Shown: piece after piece, positions 188 to 9,657 of the stretch
How the letters are laid out: the number at the start of each line of letters is the position of its first letter
How positions within the stretch are numbered: position 1 is the first letter of the stretch
Source of the DNA: Microcoleaceae cyanobacterium
GTDB lineage: Bacteria > Cyanobacteriota > Cyanobacteriia > Cyanobacteriales > Microcoleaceae
Assembly: GCA_051652765.1 (NCBI GenBank)
Contig: JBOFUV010000074.1
Span: forward strand, 32,182 to 96,181
Reading direction: 5' to 3'
Length of the DNA: 64,000 nt
Made by a program: the position numbers and the translations under genes
The notes under the pieces: model-generated
The model's input: only the letters and a program-made list of their open reading frames with translations
Database searches by the model: none
What the model was told of the DNA's origin: nothing

Positions 188-421
188 CTATCGAGCCAAG
201 TTCCCTGCCAATACGACCGAAAGCATCTCATCTTCCCATATCAAACCAAGTTGTAGCCCCAACTCGTATGACAAAACATTAACGATTGCGCCTGTACCTA
301 ATAAACCTTCGGCGTTAAGGAATTAATCATTCAGACTGAGCGTTCAAGGCAGATATGGCATTCGATCAACCATGCCAAGATTGCTGTCAATCATTCTGTA
401 AGGAAACTTTTGAGCGTTAAG
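188..421 (-). pseudogene. Decayed retropepsin-like aspartic protease cassette gene
   Basis: Manual translation LNAQKFPYRMIDSNLGMVDRMPYLP*TLSLND*FLNAEGLLGTGAIVNVLSYELGLQLGLIWEDEMLSVVLAGNLAR*; in-frame stops; expected LLDTGA motif reads LLGTGA. Confidence 0.65.
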
Positions 422-505
422 CGCCAGTTGAAGTCACCCGCCGCCAACAGCTTTGGAGTTAATCCAATAACATTGCGGTAGGTCGGGTGCAGTCACTCGT
501 TATAC
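421..505 (-). other. attC site (R' end damaged)
   Basis: Minus strand GTATAAC (overlaps the TAA stop of 500..1198) ...TGCACCCGACC...GGCGGCGGGTGA imperfect palindrome; near-identical to 2576-2660. Confidence 0.8.
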
Positions 506-1198
506 CCTTATTGACTTAATGGCTTCGATAAGGTCATTCTTCCTCATCTTACTTATGCCAGTGATCCCCATTTCTTTCGCCAAACTTTTAAGCTCAGCAA
601 CTGTCATTTTTATTAGATCATCTATTGGTGGGGGATCAGGGGGGGGTGGAGGATCTTGGGGCGTTAAGTAAAATACATCTTTAACTGAGTCTAGCTTCTT
701 ACCTTTAGTAATTCCACATTTCAGATTTATAATCGGCTCAAAATTCTTCCAGTATTGACGAGGTGCTTCATCAATCCGACTCGTAGCAACAGCAAGTTTG
801 ATGGTTTTTAAAGGACTGTTGGGTTGCTCAATTAAGAACTGCAAAGCTGAATTAATTTCTTCTCTTGAAGCTGTAGAAAGATTTAGTTTCGGAGTTTCCT
901 CCCTTGCAAGTATCTTTGTAAGGGAAGTGGTATCTTCTGTATCATCTGCAATGATACACCAAACTCTTTCTAGTCCAGCTTGTTCGGCAACGGCATACCC
1001 AAATGAATTACCCACAACCTGATATTTGTCCTTTTCAAGGATTTTAACAATCACTGGCAGCCAGTTTCGTCCTCCCTTTTGCTGGAGTTGCTTGGCCGCA
1101 GCTTTAATCAAGAAATCTGGGGCATTTGTGCCATCTGTTATCTCTATCTCGTCTAAATAGAGGTACATCAGACTGCCAATACTACTTGAATCTTTCAT
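500..1198 (-). CDS. Degenerate ParB/Srx-like N-domain + HhH-like + Rho-N DNA-binding protein
   Basis: WLPVIVK..YQVVGNSF..AEQAGLERVWCII; KLNLSTASREEI; Pro linker; C-terminal MTVAELKSLAKEMGITGISKMRKNDLIEAI (Rho_N/HeH). Confidence 0.75.
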   Translation of the reverse strand: MKDSSSIGSLMYLYLDEIEITDGTNAPDFLIKAAAKQLQQKGGRNWLPVIVKILEKDKYQVVGNSFGYAVAEQAGLERVWCIIADDTEDTTSLTKILAREETPKLNLSTASREEINSALQFLIEQPNSPLKTIKLAVATSRIDEAPRQYWKNFEPIINLKCGITKGKKLDSVKDVFYLTPQDPPPPPDPPPIDDLIKMTVAELKSLAKEMGITGISKMRKNDLIEAIKSIRV

Positions 1199-2535
1199 TG
1201 TAGAAAATACTCCTTCGCTAAGCTTTTGTAGTATTCATTGGCAAAACGATCTCTATAAACAGCAGGTATGCGAGAAAAAGCTGCACTTGCTATACTAGCG
1301 CAACTTAGGAGTTTGTGAATATCTAAGTCTTTCTTTGCAGGGGTGTACTTGGGGTAAAAATAGGGTAGCAGGTTAAAGCCTTCTTTCTTCGCATTCAAAA
1401 TAAGGTTATTGATTGCTTTCTGAGCAGCTTCTAACTGCGGTGGGGTAATTTTCTCGCCGTTAAAGAAGATGGGCAAAGCCACTGGAGTTCCGTCTTCTTT
1501 ATCTTTTTGCATTTGTGGAATAAATTGTTTGATAGTAGTAGCAGCATTCTCTAAAGAGAATAAATTATTATGCTTTGTGGGAAGAAGTACAACATCTGCG
1601 GCATAAACTGCAAGCTGGCTAATAAAGCGCCAATTTGGGGATGAATCTATAAAAATGTAATCATATTCATGCCTTGCAAACTCAAGTTTTTCGTATAGAG
1701 AGTATAACTTCATTTGCGACCGAAGTTCTTTTTCATCTAGAGCAGCCACCTCATCATCAGTAGGAATAATATCAAAGGTAATTTCAGTCTTTTTAATATG
1801 AAAACTATATAGGCGAACGAGTGATTTTAACTCAGGGTTTCTATCAGTCAGAGCCTTTTTAAGCTCTCCTTCACTCCTCTTCATTCCCAGGACGTTGGTT
1901 AAATCTTGTTGATTAAAGTCAAAATCTAAAGCCAGAACTTTTTTACCTAGAAAAGCCAGAATAGCGGCAAGATTGACAGTTGTAGTTGTTTTGCCAACTC
2001 CGCCTTTATTATTGTAAATCGCTACTGTCAAAGCTCGGCTCGTATTTTCAATCTTACGCTTGATACTTTCCACAATCTCATCAACATTATCTGGAGTAAG
2101 AGATTTACAAGTAGTGGCAGGGAAAATGGTCTTGCCGTGTTTTCTAAATAGTTGAATACGAGAAGAGTTGGTGATGATTCCCCATTGGCATGATTGGCAG
2201 TTGTCTCCAAGTAGTTGTCTTTTTAATTGATTAACAGTTGCGATGTACTTTGGGCTACCTTCAGACAAGTTAACGTCTTTACCTTTTATTTCTAGGAGTA
2301 GAAAGGGATTATTTTTGGTATGCAAAAAAATGTCGTCTTCAAAGTTCTTTCTGGCAGCAAAGTCAGGAATTTCTCTTGCCGCAGTATTAAACTCGGGAAC
2401 AATTTCTTCAGGCGTGAATCCTAAAGATCCTAGAAGTTTAGTTGCAAAATTCCTGACCATAGCTTCACTTGCATTTGGTGGCAAGCTTTGAAGCACTGAG
2501 CTAAGACTGGATGTTGTAGAACTCATAAATTGCAT
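1195..2535 (-). CDS. ParA-family ATPase with N-terminal HsdR_N-like PD-(D/E)xK nuclease domain
   Basis: Deviant Walker A NNKGGVGKTTT, DFDFNQ, YDYIFIDSSP; N-terminal IPDFAAR...LLEIKG...WGIITN; ATGA overlap with the downstream gene. Confidence 0.85.
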   Translation of the reverse strand: MQFMSSTTSSLSSVLQSLPPNASEAMVRNFATKLLGSLGFTPEEIVPEFNTAAREIPDFAARKNFEDDIFLHTKNNPFLLLEIKGKDVNLSEGSPKYIATVNQLKRQLLGDNCQSCQWGIITNSSRIQLFRKHGKTIFPATTCKSLTPDNVDEIVESIKRKIENTSRALTVAIYNNKGGVGKTTTTVNLAAILAFLGKKVLALDFDFNQQDLTNVLGMKRSEGELKKALTDRNPELKSLVRLYSFHIKKTEITFDIIPTDDEVAALDEKELRSQMKLYSLYEKLEFARHEYDYIFIDSSPNWRFISQLAVYAADVVLLPTKHNNLFSLENAATTIKQFIPQMQKDKEDGTPVALPIFFNGEKITPPQLEAAQKAINNLILNAKKEGFNLLPYFYPKYTPAKKDLDIHKLLSCASIASAAFSRIPAVYRDRFANEYYKSLAKEYFLQ

Positions 2536-2575
2536 TTCTAGTACTTGCCAATACTATAATGTGCTGCTGTCTTGA

Positions 2576-2660
2576 GCGCAACGGTTGAAATCACCCGCTG
2601 CCAACAGCTTTGGAGTTAATCCAATGACATTGCGGTAGGTTGGGTGTAATGATTTATACC
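2576..2660 (-). other. attC site (R'' end damaged)
   Basis: Ends in GTTGCGC; same family as 421-505 and 5599-5664; start reads GGTATAAATC, lacking the AAC. Confidence 0.75.
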
Positions 2661-2785
2661 TTGTTTAAGTATTGCCGACTTTCTCTCACTCAGCAAAACG
2701 ACCACCGCAGATGATGCAAACCCTCTCTCAACATAGTCAGTCGCCCTTCGGTTCAACTCCACAGGGAAGCTGTGGTGCGCTGGCA

Positions 2786-2872
2786 AGATAACGGCTCAAA
2801 TCAGCGGCAGCAGAGGACTCTCAACGAAGCAGAAAGCGTTTTGGTATGTCCGCTGCATTTGAATTGTTAGAC
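2786..2872 (-). other. attC site
   Basis: GTCTAAC...ATGCAGCGGAC...GCCGCTGATTT...GTTATCT, 87 bp, 10 bp after the stop of the DUF3368 gene. Confidence 0.88.
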
Positions 2873-2882
2873 CGCGCCGGAA

Positions 2883-3383
2883 CTACTGCAATTCCCTAAC
2901 TTGTCTGAGAGCTTCGTCATAAACCCGCTGACTCAAACGAAATTTAGCCACAGTTTGCAAAGCATCAAGCTGTTCTTGCAAGTTAACAATCACTCCTTGA
3001 CGTTTCGCCCAAATTAAGAGACCCAATGTACCAAGTATCGGTAAATTGATGCGTCGTGCAACTTGTCGCGCTTTCTTTTCATCGAGCAACAGAGCTTCTG
3101 AAGGCTGCTCAAGCAACAATGCGATCGCCTCTGCTTCACCTTGATCCAGATCTTGTTGTAACACTGATATTAGAGTCTTGTTCTCCACTTCTTGCATGGA
3201 CAGCCAAACGTTTAAGCCTGCTGCAACTTCTGCCGCTCCTGCCCGCCCTGCTCCAGTTTCCACAACTTCGTACCAGACTGCCTGTGGAATCACAATCCCG
3301 TCTGGAAATCGCCGCGTCAATATAGACAATTGCCCAATACTGCTCAGGGCAATCAAAACAGACGAGTTGCTGATGGCTCTCAA
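2883..3383 (-). CDS. DUF3368-family PIN-domain toxin
   Basis: ISNSSVLIAL, IPQAVWYEV, LDQGEAEAIAL, LLLDEKKAR, GTLGLLIWAK. Confidence 0.88.
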   Translation of the reverse strand: MRAISNSSVLIALSSIGQLSILTRRFPDGIVIPQAVWYEVVETGAGRAGAAEVAAGLNVWLSMQEVENKTLISVLQQDLDQGEAEAIALLLEQPSEALLLDEKKARQVARRINLPILGTLGLLIWAKRQGVIVNLQEQLDALQTVAKFRLSQRVYDEALRQVRELQ

Positions 3384-3640
3384 TCTAATTGCTCCAACGT
3401 GTTTAGATCATTTTCTAGTTCCTCTAAGTCGTAACTACGCTCAATTGCCTCATCTCCTAGTAATGAGTGAAACTCCCATTTTGTCATTTGTGCTAACTCC
3501 CGTGCTTTGCCAAAAGAGAGCAAGCCTTTTTGATATAAACGAATTGCCAATTCCCGTTGCAGACGAGAGAGGCGTTCAGAAGGTGGAAGTTGAAGGGATT
3601 CTGCAACATTGTTTGAAATCTCAAGTACTAGTCCACTCAT
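3380..3640 (-). CDS. UPF0175-family antitoxin
   Basis: ELAIRLYQKGLLSFGKARELAQMTKWEF; 4-bp overlap with the PIN gene. Confidence 0.88.
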   Translation of the reverse strand: MSGLVLEISNNVAESLQLPPSERLSRLQRELAIRLYQKGLLSFGKARELAQMTKWEFHSLLGDEAIERSYDLEELENDLNTLEQLD

Positions 3641-3981
3641 CCTATCCTCCTACTATTGCTAATCATGGTTTTAGGCAAATCACTACAATTTTGTCATAGG
3701 ATCTTCTTTGGCTTGCGACCGCACTGGAGGATTCACAAATCTCCTCTACTAAGCAAATTCTCCTTTGTAGTGAAGTTTTCGAGTGGTCAAGCTACTGCCA
3801 GCGGGACTAATCAATCAAAGAAGCACGATACATAAGGATCGAAAACCCATCCATAGATCGATCTTTGTGACTGCTCAGATCTCCTTGCCTCACCGCTTGT
3901 ACTAAACATTGAACTCAGAATTTGCCGTGCAGCTTCTGACCCCAGTGCTTAAAAAACTCCCTGTAAAAAAGAATTCCAGCT

Positions 3982-4170
3982 TTATTGAGCATTTGCAGAA
4001 CCAGCATTAAGGTTTAGGACAAGAGTGAAACACGCAATACCAGCAAATACTCTCTCTGTTTGCGCTTCATCCCTTGCTACTGAACCAAAGAGCATCAGAG
4101 ACTTTACGCCAAAGTCCTTCAGCGTGTTCTGATGATTCGCCAATAATGTAAGGGCTTCCTGTTTTCGCAC
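3982..4170 (-). pseudogene. Truncated minimal nucleotidyltransferase (MNT antitoxin) fused to unrelated sequence
   Basis: MRKQEALTLLANHQNTLKDFGVKSLMLFGSVARDEA, then diverges before the DxD motif; no HEPN partner. Confidence 0.75.
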
Positions 4171-4357
4171 TACCCAACCTGCAATGAAAAGAAAAATCTA
4201 CTGAGAATTGTAGCTCACCGATCACCTCCCAATTACGTCTCGACCAAAGATTCATAGCTACTTGGGCATCGCGTTCTACAGATAGCTTTCCGCTTGCACC
4301 CCAACGAAGGACTCTCAAGTGAGATCGCGAATCTCAGCATCCAACGAGAAAATAGAA

Positions 4358-4750
4358 CTAAGGAATATAAACCCGACCAACACCCATGTAATTGTCAATG
4401 TCAAAAAGAATCTCAACTAACCGACTGGCGCATCGTTCACGATAACTCTGCTCGTCAAGCCGCTCTTTGTTGCCGATCGTCACAACGGGAAGTGATGTCA
4501 GCGTATTGTCTTCCCGAATCGCTTGCTCCAACGAATCATCTCCCTTCATGTTCCGATTTGCGGTCAAGATAATCATCTGATTGCCCTGAGCTACCTGCCA
4601 AACTAAAAGATCGCTGCTGTTTTCGAGTAAGCCGACCTCTTCAAACCCAACGAATCGAATCGGCATCAGTTCAAGCCATCCTTCAGCCGCGATCGTGCCC
4701 CAAAGTAAAGCTGCCTGTCCTCGCAAATTGTAGTCAATCAGAAAATTCAT
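4358..4750 (-). CDS. DUF5615/PIN-like toxin
   Basis: MNFLIDYNL, SSDLLVWQVAQ, MIILTANR; overlaps the DUF433 gene by 4 bp. Confidence 0.8.
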   Translation of the reverse strand: MNFLIDYNLRGQAALLWGTIAAEGWLELMPIRFVGFEEVGLLENSSDLLVWQVAQGNQMIILTANRNMKGDDSLEQAIREDNTLTSLPVVTIGNKERLDEQSYRERCASRLVEILFDIDNYMGVGRVYIP

Positions 4751-5130
4751 ACCTTGGACTCAAGCCTGTCTTTCCAAGCCTGAAGTTTAGCACGGATAGC
4801 CTCTTGACTCGGTTTTGGAGATGTTGCAACAAGACGGGCAAAGTGTTCTCGATTGCGTTCTTCCCAATATTGCCGATTCTCTTCCGCAGTTTGTAAAACT
4901 TGTTGATATTCAGACTCGACTTCAGCTTGATGAGCTTTGATGTAAAACAGAGCCGCATCGATCTGAGCATCTGTGAGACAGAGCTTTTCGCGAATGAGCT
5001 TTGCAGGATAGCCAGCCGTGTAGTAATCCATCACGTCATAAAGCGTAATGCGGGTTCCTGCGATCGTGATCCCACGCTCTGTCCGAATAATTTCCGATTG
5101 ATCACTAGATGCCGAACTCATTTTCCACAT
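4747..5130 (-). CDS. DUF433-family antitoxin
   Basis: RGITIAGTRITLYDVMDY...LTDAQIDAALFYI; alternative start at 5121. Confidence 0.87.
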   Translation of the reverse strand: MWKMSSASSDQSEIIRTERGITIAGTRITLYDVMDYYTAGYPAKLIREKLCLTDAQIDAALFYIKAHQAEVESEYQQVLQTAEENRQYWEERNREHFARLVATSPKPSQEAIRAKLQAWKDRLESKV

Positions 5131-5196
5131 TCCTGCTTTCTGAACAGTAGTCCCATTTTATCTTGTTTTAAAATAATTGACTTCCTCAGCTTCGGA

Positions 5197-5544
5197 CTAG
5201 AAGGGGCTAAGCCAAAACCCTAGGTGGCCAAGATCGGAGACTAAGGTTACTAATGTGTAAACAATGAATAAAAGAGCGCCTAAAAACCATAGTAGAAATG
5301 TAAAAAGATTTCCTCCTTTAGTCCCCACATAAATTAAACGAGAAATACCCATGAACTCAATTATCAAAAACCGCCAGAGGTTTGCAGTAGCCTGCTCAGT
5401 AACAAATTGAATCTTTGGAGCAAATGTTGCAATTGCATTTTTCAAGTCTTGTATATTACCCATCATTGATTTACCTTTTTTGGGCAGGCCAACTCTTAAT
5501 GGCTCCTGATTTGCCTGGATTTCTGCCTTCCAGTCAAACTTCAA
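5197..5544 (-). CDS. Hypothetical membrane protein, possibly a cassette remnant
   Basis: TTG-start ORF with hydrophobic C-terminus, next to a truncated attC. Confidence 0.3.
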   Translation of the reverse strand: MKFDWKAEIQANQEPLRVGLPKKGKSMMGNIQDLKNAIATFAPKIQFVTEQATANLWRFLIIEFMGISRLIYVGTKGGNLFTFLLWFLGALLFIVYTLVTLVSDLGHLGFWLSPF

Positions 5545-5598
5545 CGGCTGAGTCCAAAATCCCTCGTAAACGTAACCTTATCCACAGATTCTAAGGAA

Positions 5599-5664
5599 GC
5601 CGCCAACAGCTTCAGAATTAATCCAGTACTGCTATTGCAGGTCGGGTGCAGTGATTTGTTAGCT
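5599..5664 (-). other. Truncated attC site
   Basis: AGCTAAC AAATCACTGCACCCGACC...GCTGTTGGCGGC, then similarity to the 421/2576 copies stops; distal arm missing. Confidence 0.72.
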
Positions 5665-5751
5665 TGACTTGGGCGAGCTGACTGTCTCTTAACTCAGCCC
5701 TGAATACTGACACACACGTTTCCGGTTGCGTCATCACCGATAGCTCAGGCG

Positions 5752-5836
5752 GCATAACGGCAAAAGTGAGCGGCGACAGACAATATCGAAACAAAGCACA
5801 AAGACTCTGCACGTCCGCTCCACTGCGTTGTTATGC
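5752..5836 (-). other. attC site (intact)
   Basis: GCATAAC...GTGGAGCGGAC...GCCGCTCAC...GTTATGC, 85 bp with complementary core ends. Confidence 0.92.
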
Positions 5837-6184
5837 CGCGCAATCTGCTGTACATCAACAATACTTCGGACAGAATTAGACAGCAATAATGCTGTAAACG
5901 CTGGACTTTGTGTTGAATTTAATCGAAGTGGGTGATAGGGCGCTGAAAAATGAGCACGAGATTGTTCGCTTCTCTGTCTAATGGCTCATGTGAAAATTGT
6001 TCAAACTTTTGTACGATAATAACACAACCGTAGCTTTTCATAATGATGTTTCCTTAGCTCCATCTACAAAGCTAGTTTGGTTTTGAGAAGCGTCAGTCGT
6101 TCGGTGCTGACCCTACAACCTTTTGTTCAGCAGGTGAAACGCGGTTCAGATTTAAGGCAAAAATTCTTTTCCTAAAGGAGAACG

Positions 6185-6637
6185 GTGATGTTAGATATCG
6201 ATGAAATGAGTTCAAAGGAAATACAAGAGCTTTTGAAAAAAGTGGGACACGGGCACCTTGGCTGTATCTTCAAAGAGCATCCCTACGTTGTGCCAATGCA
6301 CTACTATCTCGAAGGCTCAGACATTTACCTTGTCACCACTGAAGGCATGAAGACGCAAGCGATGGACGCAAATCCAGAAATTTGCCTCCAGATTGAAGAA
6401 GTGCATGACCCAGCACACTGGCGGAGTGTGGTAGTGACAGGTCGAGTCGAGCGCATCACTACGCAGCCAGACCTCGATCGAGCTATGCACTTTATCAAAG
6501 AACGGAATCCAACGCTTTCGCCTGCAATTAATCGCACCTGGGTCGATAGTTGGGGACGCGCTGCGGTGATTGCCATCTTCCGCATTCATTCCAGCGAGAT
6601 GAGTGGACGGACAACCACTGGAGTGAGTAGCAAGTAA
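6185..6637 (+). CDS. Pyridoxamine 5'-phosphate oxidase-like flavin-binding protein (NimA-like split barrel)
   Basis: GHLGC..HPYVVPMHY..TTEGMKTQAMDANPEICLQI..WRSVVVTG; AAGGAG RBS at ~6175. Confidence 0.87.
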   Translation: MMLDIDEMSSKEIQELLKKVGHGHLGCIFKEHPYVVPMHYYLEGSDIYLVTTEGMKTQAMDANPEICLQIEEVHDPAHWRSVVVTGRVERITTQPDLDRAMHFIKERNPTLSPAINRTWVDSWGRAAVIAIFRIHSSEMSGRTTTGVSSK

Positions 6638-6640
6638 GCA

Positions 6641-7012
6641 TTGATTGCTGCAGTCTCAGTTCTGACCTATTTAAGGAATTCAACGAGCATGGTGGGCAAC
6701 TTACTGCAATGTGAGTATCTTGGTTGGGGGAAATTAGAGTCGTTTCGATCGAGGTCTTTATCCGAGAATGAGACATTGATTTTCACGGAGATTGCAGGAA
6801 CCGCTCCGGTATTAATTCGAGGATTTCTTGATTGTCTGCGCTCTCCAGAGCTCCACGCAAAAACTCCTCAGCAATTTTCAGAAAGTAATATGGCAGAATT
6901 CATGGTGGAAATGGTCAGAACGCTCCCGGAAAGCCTGTTGCAGGAGTGGGCAAACCAGTCCAACACCGATCAAAATATGGTTTGTGCGATCCTACGTTGG
7001 TCAGTAAACTAA
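6641..7012 (+). CDS. Hypothetical protein
   Basis: 123-aa ORF directly after the flavin gene; start uncertain (ATG at 6689 possible). Confidence 0.5.
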   Translation: MIAAVSVLTYLRNSTSMVGNLLQCEYLGWGKLESFRSRSLSENETLIFTEIAGTAPVLIRGFLDCLRSPELHAKTPQQFSESNMAEFMVEMVRTLPESLLQEWANQSNTDQNMVCAILRWSVN

Positions 7013-7143
7013 TGGATTTGCAACCATTAAAGAAACATGGTTTCCGATTCAAAAGTGTTATCTCATCGACTGCTTTAAGATATTGTAATTTTGAATACCA
7101 ACGGATAGCTTTCAAACTACCGCTCCAACCTGTAACCGGAGCG

Positions 7144-7380
7144 GCATAACTATTACTATATTGAAATTTTCTGCATAACCAACGCTTTTGGGATGATTAC
7201 CCTGAAACTTTCCATATAATCCACCCTAATACTGCAACTACACTGAAACTTTCTGGGTATACATCCTAAATTTGAGGATTATCCCAAAACTTTCCGTATA
7301 TTCTCCGATGAAACACAGCAATGTTCGGCCTAGCATCGATTTATTCGGAGCGTTACCTTGAAATTTTCTGTATAAACCCC
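7144..7380 (-). promoter_or_regulatory. attI-like site and intI/Pc promoter region with phased direct repeats
   Basis: Core GTTATGC (minus, 7150-7144) at the position expected next to a divergent intI; TGAAA(C/T)TTTC-type repeats at 7162, 7203, 7244, 7285 and 7359. Confidence 0.72.
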
Positions 7381-7382
7381 AA

Positions 7383-7735
7383 ATGGAACAACGCCCGAAA
7401 AAGCTGTTGGATCAGGTGCGTGATCTGATTCGGCTCAAACATTATTCCTATCAAACTGAAAAAACCTATGTGGGATGGATTAGGCGCTACATATTGTTTC
7501 ATCAAATCCGCCATCCTCAAGAAATGGGGTCTGCTGAAATTGAGACTTTTCTGACTCATTTAGCAGTTGAGGAGAAGTAGCCGCTTCCACTCAGAATCAG
7601 GCGTTCAGTGCTCTCCTGTTTCTCTATCGGGAGGTGTTGCGGCAGGAGTTGGATTTGCCGATTGATTCCATTCGAGCCAAACGCCCGCATTACTTGCCAA
7701 CCGTATTGACCAAACCAGAGGTGTTGGCCATTTAG
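7383..7735 (+). pseudogene. intI: Integron integrase, frameshifted and truncated
   Basis: [50 protein letters not shown]; 1-nt frameshift at ~7576; continues [41 protein letters not shown]; catalytic domain absent. Confidence 0.93.
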
Positions 7736-9657
7736 CAAATCACCCGATAAACATTCACCGGTTGTTGACGACCTCGAAGCTGCAAACGCCCAACGAACTT
7801 GGTCGGGAACTTGCCATCAAGGTACTGATAAGTGACTTCACTAATGAGAATTCGACAGCACTCGTCGTTAAACTTTTTTTCGTAAGCTTCTAACCGAGAG
7901 GCCACATTAACGCTGTCGCCAATCGTCGTGTAGTTTAACCGTTGACGACTCCCCAAACTCCCAGCAACAACATCTCCAGTGGCAATGCCAATCCGCATTC
8001 CGGTAGTCGGGAGCCCCTGTTCTTGCCAGTGGTGATTTAACGCTTTTAACTTCTCAACCATGCCACAGGCACAAGCCACCGCCGCGATCGCCTCCTGGGC
8101 GACCTCTTCTGGACTAATACTCGGAATAGGAACCCCAAAAACGGCCATAATCGAATCGCCAATGAACTTATCCACCACGCCATTATTGTCCAGAATCACC
8201 TCAGCCATGGCATCCATGTAGTCGTTTAGCCAAGACATTAGAGTTTCCGCATCGGTTCGTTCGGCGATTTGAGTGAATCCTTGAAGGTCACTAAAAAGAA
8301 CGGTTGCCGTCATCTGTTTGCCCACCATCCGTCCCTGGATCAGGAGTTGATCCCGCTCATTCCAAATAATTTCGGCAATTTTTGGAGTGACATTTTTACC
8401 AAATAGGGCCATCATCGTTTCCCGATCTTGCCGTTCAACTCGGGCTACATAGCCCATCACAACAACAGCGGAACCGATCAAGGCTAGAACGGGTGGAATT
8501 AAGGGAATCCACCATCCCCACAGACAAGCAAGGTAAGCTGCAAGGGTCAAGCCACCTCCCAGAAGTACAAATCCAGCGATCACCCAACGTTTGGCTCGCC
8601 AACTCCAGCCGAGAGTTGCGCCAATACCTGACCATAGAACAATCCACCCCCACTCCAACGGCTCAGGCCAAACCTGAATTAAGGGTCTGCCATCAAGGGC
8701 TGCGCTAATGATTTGGCTGGTGGTTTCTGCATGAATCTCAACCCCTGGGGATGCTGAAAAAATAGTCTTGCTGTAGGGCGTAAAAAACAGGTCTTTTAAA
8801 CTGGCTGCGGTTGACCCAATCAGCACAATGCGATCGCTAAAAAAGCCAGGAGGAATATCGTTATTTAAGACTTCGGTCATCGAAATCGTGTCAAAAATCT
8901 TGCAGATCGTGAATTGGGTACGGCAATCTTTCTGCTGGAAATTCATCAGGATTTGGTAGCCGCCAGCATCCACATTCACATAGGCACCATCATTCGGGCC
9001 TAGGGGTCTGAAAACAGCCTGACCTAGCCGGACTGCACGAGTCTCTTCGTCAATCACCTCCAAATCCACCGCCTCAGCTTCAAGATAAATCAGGGCTAAC
9101 TGAGTGGATAGCGTGTAAATCGGAGGTTCGCTTTCGTCGAGTTGAAGGGAGAGCAAGACCCGGCGCAGTTTGCCATCTTCGTCAATTTGAGCATCCACGG
9201 CTCCAACTTGGCCAAGTTGGTTTAGGACAGGAGGAGGAGCAATTGAGGAACCTGTGATATCTTGGACAACTTTCTTGACTCCAATCAAGTTGGGGGTGGA
9301 CTCAAAGACTTGAGCAAGCTGTTCATGACCGGGCGGGACAGGAATATCGCGATAGAGATCGAGACCAATCGCCCTAGGCTGCTGCTGTTTAATATGAGTA
9401 ATGATCTGTGCTAAAGCACCATCAGAAATGGGCCATTGCTGGGCTTTTCTGATATCAGACTCATCAATTTCAACGATCACAATCCGGGAATCAGAAGGCT
9501 CTGAAGGTCGCCAACGTAGAAACTGATCCCAAGCTGCCCACTCCAGAAGTTGAAGAAGACCTGTTAACCGAATCCCAATGACAACACTTGCCACAACTGG
9601 AGCTGTCATCCATGGCCCACGCCACTGCCAAAGCCTTTTCTGAAGGGATCTAAACAT
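7732..9657 (-). CDS. CHASE2-domain class III adenylate/guanylate cyclase
   Basis: CHASE2 ([26 protein letters not shown]), three TM helices, [36 protein letters not shown]. Confidence 0.95.

Follow-up and report, generated by a model that had tools for sequence, protein, structure and literature searches.

The DNA analysed here is a 64,000-nucleotide stretch (the window) of a Microcoleaceae cyanobacterium, taken from contig JBOFUV010000074.1 of assembly GCA_051652765.1; this genome is called G000 below, its contigs carry C numbers, and the window lies on C74. Near the start of the window lies an integron remnant, consisting of a 5' stub of an integrase gene (intI), an attI site beside it and an array of five attC sites with their cargo (Table 1). 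Read along the minus strand, the attI crossover is followed by a 1.3-kb first segment, attC1, fused cassette pieces and a 2.7-kb block, after which come attC3, a 210-bp gene-less cassette with attC4, and a two-gene cassette with attC5. A first-pass annotation, made from the letters alone, had described a decaying chromosomal integron in a filamentous cyanobacterium. The host assignment agreed with 641 HIP1 sites per Mb, and a HetR-family match pointed to the filamentous habit; the locus is indeed an integron remnant with a broken intI, but not a single integron, since it turned out to be one of 22 platforms in the genome.

Table 1. Features of the integron remnant, its cargo and its flank, in window positions (HMM, profile hidden Markov model; CM, covariance model; E, expectation value).
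Feature	Position	Strand	Remarks
attC5, last site of the array	423..505	-	R'' intact, R' (GTT) arm lost; CM 24.2 bits; HMM 32.4 bits (425-505, model 1-79 of 87)
232-residue reading frame	500..1198	-	C-terminal Rho_N-like domain (PF07498, E 1.7e-12)
446-residue ParA/AAA_31 ATPase	1195..2535	-	Weak HsdR_N-like N-terminus; first gene of two-gene cassette (~2581 to 429)
attC4	2576..2662	-	R' intact, R'' (AAC) damaged; CM 23.1 bits; HMM 28.6 bits (2577-2657, model 9-83)
~210-bp cassette, no recognised gene	2582..2791	-	attC4 within; relatives on 14 other contigs of the genome
attC3	2786..2872	-	Intact; CM 59.8 bits; HMM 43.7 bits
UPF0175 (3380-3640) and DUF3368 (2883-3383) pair	2883..3640	-	Toxin-antitoxin-like; PADLOC PDC-S70, E 5e-43; Pfam
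Minimal nucleotidyltransferase remnant	3982..4170	-	Broken; PADLOC PDC-S09, E 1.2e-8, residues 1-38; weak PF01909
DUF433 (4747-5130) and DUF5615-like (4358-4750) pair	4358..5130	-	Toxin-antitoxin-like; DUF5615 match below cut-off
attC2	5598..5664	-	Cut before R' arm; HMM 31.3 bits (model 2-66); no CM report at E<=5
Gene-less cassette fragment including attC2	5598..5698	-	Second such cassette; C21 and C10 carry copies 98-99% identical to it
attC1	5752..5836	-	Intact; CM 58.0 bits; HMM 33.1 bits
Pyridoxamine-5'-phosphate-oxidase-family gene	6185-6637	+	PF12900, E 5e-20; antisense to cassette direction
123-residue unknown reading frame	in 6185..7012	+	Companion of the oxidase gene; antisense to cassette direction
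attI core	7144..7170	-	G|TT crossover at 7150/7149; shorter by one base than 20 of 21 other copies
attI-intI spacer	7151..7382	+	Conserved; related boxes at 7154, 7195, 7236, 7277 (41-bp period) and 7351
intI 5' stub	7383..7732	+	IntI residues 1-117; one-nucleotide deletion near 7577; stop 7578-7580
CHASE2 adenylate/guanylate cyclase gene	7732..9657	-	Flanking, chromosomal; convergent to intI; stop codon abuts truncation point

The peptide starting at 7383 had been called an IntI N-terminus and proved to be one: in a profile search, 7383-7580 matched positions 1-58 of TIGR02249 (E 1.8e-18), and 7577-7735 matched positions 59-109 one frame over (E 3.9e-14). Aligned with the near-full intI of a genome of the same genus (G002), a gene that carries a nonsense codon close to its own end, the stub was identical at 313 of 351 positions (89%), with a single gap of one missing base after 7576, and homology ended at 7732. 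Judged by this alignment, the intI of the window copy is doubly broken, as had been proposed, by a frameshift and by loss of the catalytic half; in place of a complete tyrosine recombinase bearing the insertion specific to IntI there are residues 1-117, frameshifted, and even so this is the longest intI remnant in the whole genome. A stub in another genome of the order (G028) also stops near residue 117, and a truncation hot spot there is not claimed, one coincidence being expected among this many truncations compared.

The attI-like core beside the stub was likewise confirmed. Conservation with the 21 other copies starts sharply at AAC 7148-7150, which is the crossover, and mean identity across the 22 cores is 0.72 on its platform side and 0.36 on its cassette side; the window copy thus has an attI next to the 5' end of intI, and the crossover is G|TT, as in an integron it should be, and a matching core also sits upstream of an intact intI in genome G070. 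The first-pass annotation had not recorded that the window core is one base short: its GAAA box lies at an offset of 12, whereas 19 copies have it at 13 and one has it at 14; one further copy carries a variant box still in the 13 register. Under the spacing rules of tyrosine recombinases a core shortened in this way would be expected to be impaired. Because of this lost base and the damage to three of the five attC sites, the window copy is probably among the more inert platforms and probably no longer captures cassettes. A consensus scan for a Pc promoter that would drive the array found no sigma-70-type match in 7151-7732, and in the region as a whole it gave 9 promoter-like sites where 13 were expected, hence no excess.

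For the attC sites, I used models of my own in place of IntegronFinder, namely an HMM of 87 positions built from 58 sites and a CM built from 31, all of them on other contigs. The five co-oriented sites that had been reported, two intact and three damaged, all scored with the HMM (28.6-43.7 bits, all on the minus strand), and both intact sites passed with the CM. Across the genome the HMM found 89 attC sites at E<=0.01, and none at that level in the reversed-genome control. The family stem covaries, with 83% of cells paired and 101 two-sided changes versus 49 in shuffles, and pairing fell to 29-45% when the alignment was slid as a control; co-oriented sites whose R and L boxes pair and that carry extra-helical bases are what an integron array should show. 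Folding alone was a weak guide, with only 5746-5842 beating shuffles (z -3.0; other sites -0.2 to -1.3), and an Rfam search returned one match, at chance level (E 0.82). The model scan found no more attC in the 20 kb upstream or the remaining window. An earlier heuristic scan was noisy, overlooked the sites of the window and served only for picking seeds.

The same arrangement recurs throughout the genome. I counted 22 attI cores in the assembly, after removing four pattern hits without a spacer and adding two indel variants, and relatives of the attI-spacer-stub unit lie on about 20 contigs. A platform consists of attI and the conserved spacer, usually with a 5' intI piece, and arrays extend on the expected side and strand: 17 of the 22 platforms are joined by one or more co-oriented attC sites in a 7-kb chain, and of the 44 attC sites so linked 43 are on the correct strand. 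The other 45 of the 89 are unchained to a core on their own contig, some of them reaching platforms through contig overlaps. All 12 copies examined share a cut at base 63 of intI and are 80-94% identical over 138 nt. A platform tree was poorly resolved (11 of 27 branches strong), with G000 and G002 copies intermixed, and was left out of the ordering of events.

There is no catalytic half of IntI in this assembly. The search for an intact intI that had been suggested earlier yielded nothing over the TIGR02249 cut-off, and tblastn with two intact IntI proteins gave IntI-level identity confined to residues 1-117; the remaining matches were weak, the best two being generic recombinase matches. An intact gene may lie on a dropped or unassembled contig, because the C68 platform runs off the left end of its contig about 23 nt ahead of the intI start, an end for which no partner contig end exists, and the smallest assembled contig has 1,614 bases.

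Cassettes nevertheless appear to have moved between these platforms. The first cassette at the C146 attI and a cassette behind an attC in the C51-C132 array are 98.7% identical over 298 nt, starting from GTT, while the platforms tied to this pair match at only 84-95%. On C45 and C67, 139 of 139 nt are identical from G|TT onwards after two different attC sites, and the platforms there are 92% alike; a third cassette pair is less close (72-93%). The apparent 100% identity of gene-less cassette copies on C10 and C116 was dropped, as these contigs overlap at one locus. Because the near-identical cassettes are closer than the platforms and start at the crossover, it is likely that they were moved recently between integrase-less platforms by IntI, after truncation and hence in trans. 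The first-pass annotation had considered the array probably frozen unless an integrase acts in trans: the window copy is probably inert for capture, and the caveat on action in trans appears to be the main story.

On this evidence, the locus is probably a decayed member of a dispersed set of 22 integrase-less platforms, whose cassettes are likely to have been loaded and exchanged by an integrase acting in trans. IntI from an unassembled, plasmid-borne or recently lost copy would have excised cassettes, which would then have been inserted at the attI or attC of other platforms after the stubs arose. More speculatively, the platforms may themselves have spread as IntI cargo; counted in favour of this are an attC fused within intI in G002, platforms in tandem inside arrays, and a lack of transposases around six platforms. 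Since attC, but not attI1, recombines with genomic GWT sites, an array attC might pair with a GWT site beyond or inside intI to give a circle carrying attI and attC, and such a circle could re-enter elsewhere through its attC. In the window copy, later deletions would account for the shortened attI, the damage at three attC sites and the missing remainder of intI; the 3-kb block between its two intact attC sites could still be excisable in trans. A bolder version, in which cyanobacteria have a distributed integron where a single integrase gene (chromosomal, plasmid-borne or transient) serves dozens of scattered attI docks that spread as its cargo, with cassettes circulating among the docks in a system still live in this organism, is offered tentatively, as somewhat less probable than its negation.

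Several observations weigh against an integrase in trans or against spread as its cargo. The base-63 junction lies at no AAC or GTT, and neither triplet is present at the distal junction of the window copy; a distal attC near a platform remnant was seen in only two cases in the genome (C116 and C61). An empty site was resolved at none of five loci (the window locus and four others), because gene order in G001, a 100% complete genome of the same genus, and in G002 differs too much. The 139-nt identity is a minimum set by contig ends, and selection on cargo or gene conversion could partly explain cassette identity. No IntI donor for the genome was found, the best metagenome and plasmid relatives being 70-73% identical to the stub: of 580 metagenome IntI loci, the 80 retained included none above 73% DNA identity. 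A 58-kb cyanobacterial plasmid (NZ_CP083584.1) does carry an annotated full-length intI, which counts in favour of action in trans; it is 70% identical to the stub. Exact-motif scans of metagenome contigs for the intI start and of viral contigs for the attI core gave 0 matches.

Related genomes were then surveyed. Of 301 genomes of the order, 98 had matches to the attI motif, compared with a single control match in 20 genomes; G000 had 20 matches and the next highest genome 10. Among 27 genomes checked for IntI (G001, G002 and 25 chosen for motif matches), four passed the cut-off and two had an uninterrupted full-length gene. G070 combines one uninterrupted IntI with several orphan cores, there being at least five further attI-motif matches. 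G028, assembled in two contigs, has four stubs dispersed over its chromosome, none intact, and no IntI over the cut-off. Same-direction tandem platforms inside arrays occur in G016, G070 and G064, and by contig overlap at C114-C146 of G000. In G016 (C1:4482000-4501999), three near-full intI and one stub stand in tandem inside one cassette array, where two units are preceded by a fragment that by eye resembles the prfA 3' end. In G002 (L053:2614-2900, contig C63), an attC is fused exactly at G|TT inside intI, cutting the stub, apparently a case of an integrase cutting its own gene. Cassettes and platforms common to G002 are mostly 83-93% identical versus about 70-80% for flanking genes, and this closeness suggests exchange between species.

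The strongest competing explanation is that many once-complete integrons were loaded in cis, with stub alleles and duplicate cassettes spread by gene conversion and no activity in trans. G016 has three near-full intI copies, three other truncations lead into the same downstream repeat region, and the base-63 junction occurs with both attI subtypes and therefore implies recombination among copies. This history would nevertheless need 22 working intI genes, every one of which then lost its catalytic half and left no trace of it. Moreover, the point at which cassettes become shared is precisely G|TT, although the attC or attI sites ahead of it differ, as would be the case for integrase products; I consider this history unlikely.

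Two further explanations are highly improbable. A single ancestral sedentary integron decaying here, with the other attC clusters as its scattered fragments, is the picture of the first-pass annotation and would suit the long intI remnant and five attC sites of the window copy, but fragmenting scatters attC sites and leaves one attI, and the count of 22 already largely refutes it. The site is also no conserved ancestral locus, since G001 has neither attC nor attI motif and the cyclase gene has other neighbours in G002.

Equally doubtful is that a non-autonomous transposon or a 22-bp repeat carried the platforms by means of an unrelated recombinase, with IntI loading cassettes only. Most base-63 stubs do lead into a conserved 70-nt stretch followed by a variable 22-bp tandem array; that repeat, however, also occurs without a platform, is missing from the window copy and, of 41 genomes, turned up in just 2. 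No shared terminus was visible by eye among the ragged distal ends, and transposases were absent among the window-region reading frames scanned and among 53 reading frames at six other platforms, so that the flanking transposase or terminal inverted repeats of a transposon-borne integron, or of one borne by a miniature inverted-repeat transposable element, were not seen. That mixing or misassembly of the genome created the apparent multiplicity is barely credible: the assembly is a 158-contig draft in which several arrays stop at contig ends, yet contamination is 0.18%, many platforms are far from any contig end and have differing neighbour genes, and the layout is repeated in the two contigs of G028.

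The 22-bp repeat follows most base-63 stubs in 2-13 tandem copies and also stands alone, sometimes adjoining Uma2-like genes (named by eye). It was seen on C34, C45, C50, C61, C63, C64, C67, C97, C101, C103, C109, C134, C144, C145, C146 and other contigs of G000, and at G002:C107:620-750. A role as tandem IntI site was unsupported, as some array ends fall at its GTT but most elsewhere. At C74:26915-27006, 5.6 kb past the array end, the conserved stretch that otherwise adjoins stubs occurs by itself, with neither attI nor stub.

The cargo of the window, earlier described as cassette-sized, is only partly cassette-like. In the two-gene cassette, the stop codon of the 232-residue frame falls inside the R'' box of attC5 in the manner of a true cassette; this frame has no entry in the protein atlas. 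In G002 the ParA-fusion/Rho_N pair is the first cargo behind an attI, and it is conserved at nine cyanobacterial loci (L084-L092), with attC matches at 0 of 9. The gene-less cassettes belong to a family (window 2582-2791 and 5599-5698) with about 15 copies in this genome. No match was found in 300 other genomes, with only two candidates scored per genome, and there was no unusual RNA fold (z 0.7 to -1.6); the family is a candidate promoter cassette. After attC1, a short cassette start is fused to part of a gene-less cassette with the cut attC2. The 2.7-kb block holds two toxin-antitoxin-like pairs and the broken nucleotidyltransferase with no attC within; neither HMM nor CM found a site separating the DUF433/DUF5615-like pair from the next, and the UPF0175/DUF3368 pair has its stop codon 10 bp ahead of attC3. 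The antisense genes in 6185..7012 were likely inserted into cassette 1 or have taken its place. Elsewhere in the genome, genes for a Cap4 nuclease, an ABC-3C middle component and an AAA ATPase lie between two attC sites (L139:11055-14570, contig C34), and other arrays carry Mrr, HNH, Type ISP, methylase and serpin genes.

The locus falls under the definition of a CALIN (attC sites clustered without an integron-integrase; at least two attC, no functional intI nearby), not under that of a complete integron, and its five attC equal the CALIN average; it differs in retaining attI and a 5' intI stub and in belonging to a 22-member family. A sedentary chromosomal integron is one found in all genomes of a species or with more than 19 attC in its array (PMC4889954), a size that five sites do not reach. 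The origin of integrase-less cassette clusters is described as open, with four candidate routes (PMC4889954), and pseudogenes were reported near only 15 of 279 CALINs, in a search with the IntI C-terminal domain that such stubs lack. Broken and multiple intI genes are common (PMC2426708; PMC4889954), about one-third of those surveyed being pseudogenes and about 20% of carriers having more than one (PMC2426708). Cyanobacterial attC models already exist (PMC8352920), while descriptions of attI sites are poor beyond class 1 (PMC9024848); the boxes of the window spacer, at 7154-7295 in a 41-bp period, outnumber the two accessory repeats of attI1. Judged by title or start of abstract, no paper on many dispersed attI platforms in a cyanobacterium was found, though the per-genome tables of the IntegronFinder papers may enter such genomes as multiple CALINs.

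Taken alone, the window copy is an ordinary decayed integron, and what stands out is rather the dispersed family, in which cassettes show signs of having moved recently. For the origin of orphan cassette clusters, this genome offers a countable case and a usable cyanobacterial attI motif, making it testable whether such clusters keep attI and are served in trans. Capture sites and integrase genes would then differ in number, and many short arrays would each lie near a platform of their own in place of a single long array. If the bolder version holds, many cyanobacterial CALINs may be attI-bearing platforms that were overlooked, their attI being undescribed and their stubs lacking the C-terminal search domain.

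Among known routes, Loot et al. described IntI joining attC to genomic GWT sites (attG insertion, giving single attC sites lacking integron-integrases, SALINs), while attI1 gave no significant recombination rate with genomic sites (10.1101/2022.09.11.507474). The interruption of the G002 stub at G|TT by an attC resembles such an event; this route scatters cassettes and not attI platforms, so that platform spread would need the putative attC-bearing circle. The gene-less cassettes resemble the promoter cassettes of the Vibrio superintegron in being short, gene-less and ahead of gene cassettes (10.1101/2023.11.21.568050), and differ in that the window scan gave no excess of promoter-like sites. 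In Xanthomonas, inactivated sedentary integrons also pair a frameshifted or deleted intI with a retained array, but there a single conserved locus (ilvD) is involved and arrays stabilise after inactivation (10.1101/2025.06.18.660453). Here, by contrast, platforms are many, loci are not conserved and cassettes apparently moved after truncation. Class 2 integrons are acted on in trans by IntI1. Those with a nonsense intI2 (PMC2426708) are likewise dead-integrase platforms still holding cassettes, yet they are transposon-borne, with one platform and a full-length gene, whereas the platforms described here are chromosomal, present in many copies and have had the catalytic half of intI deleted.

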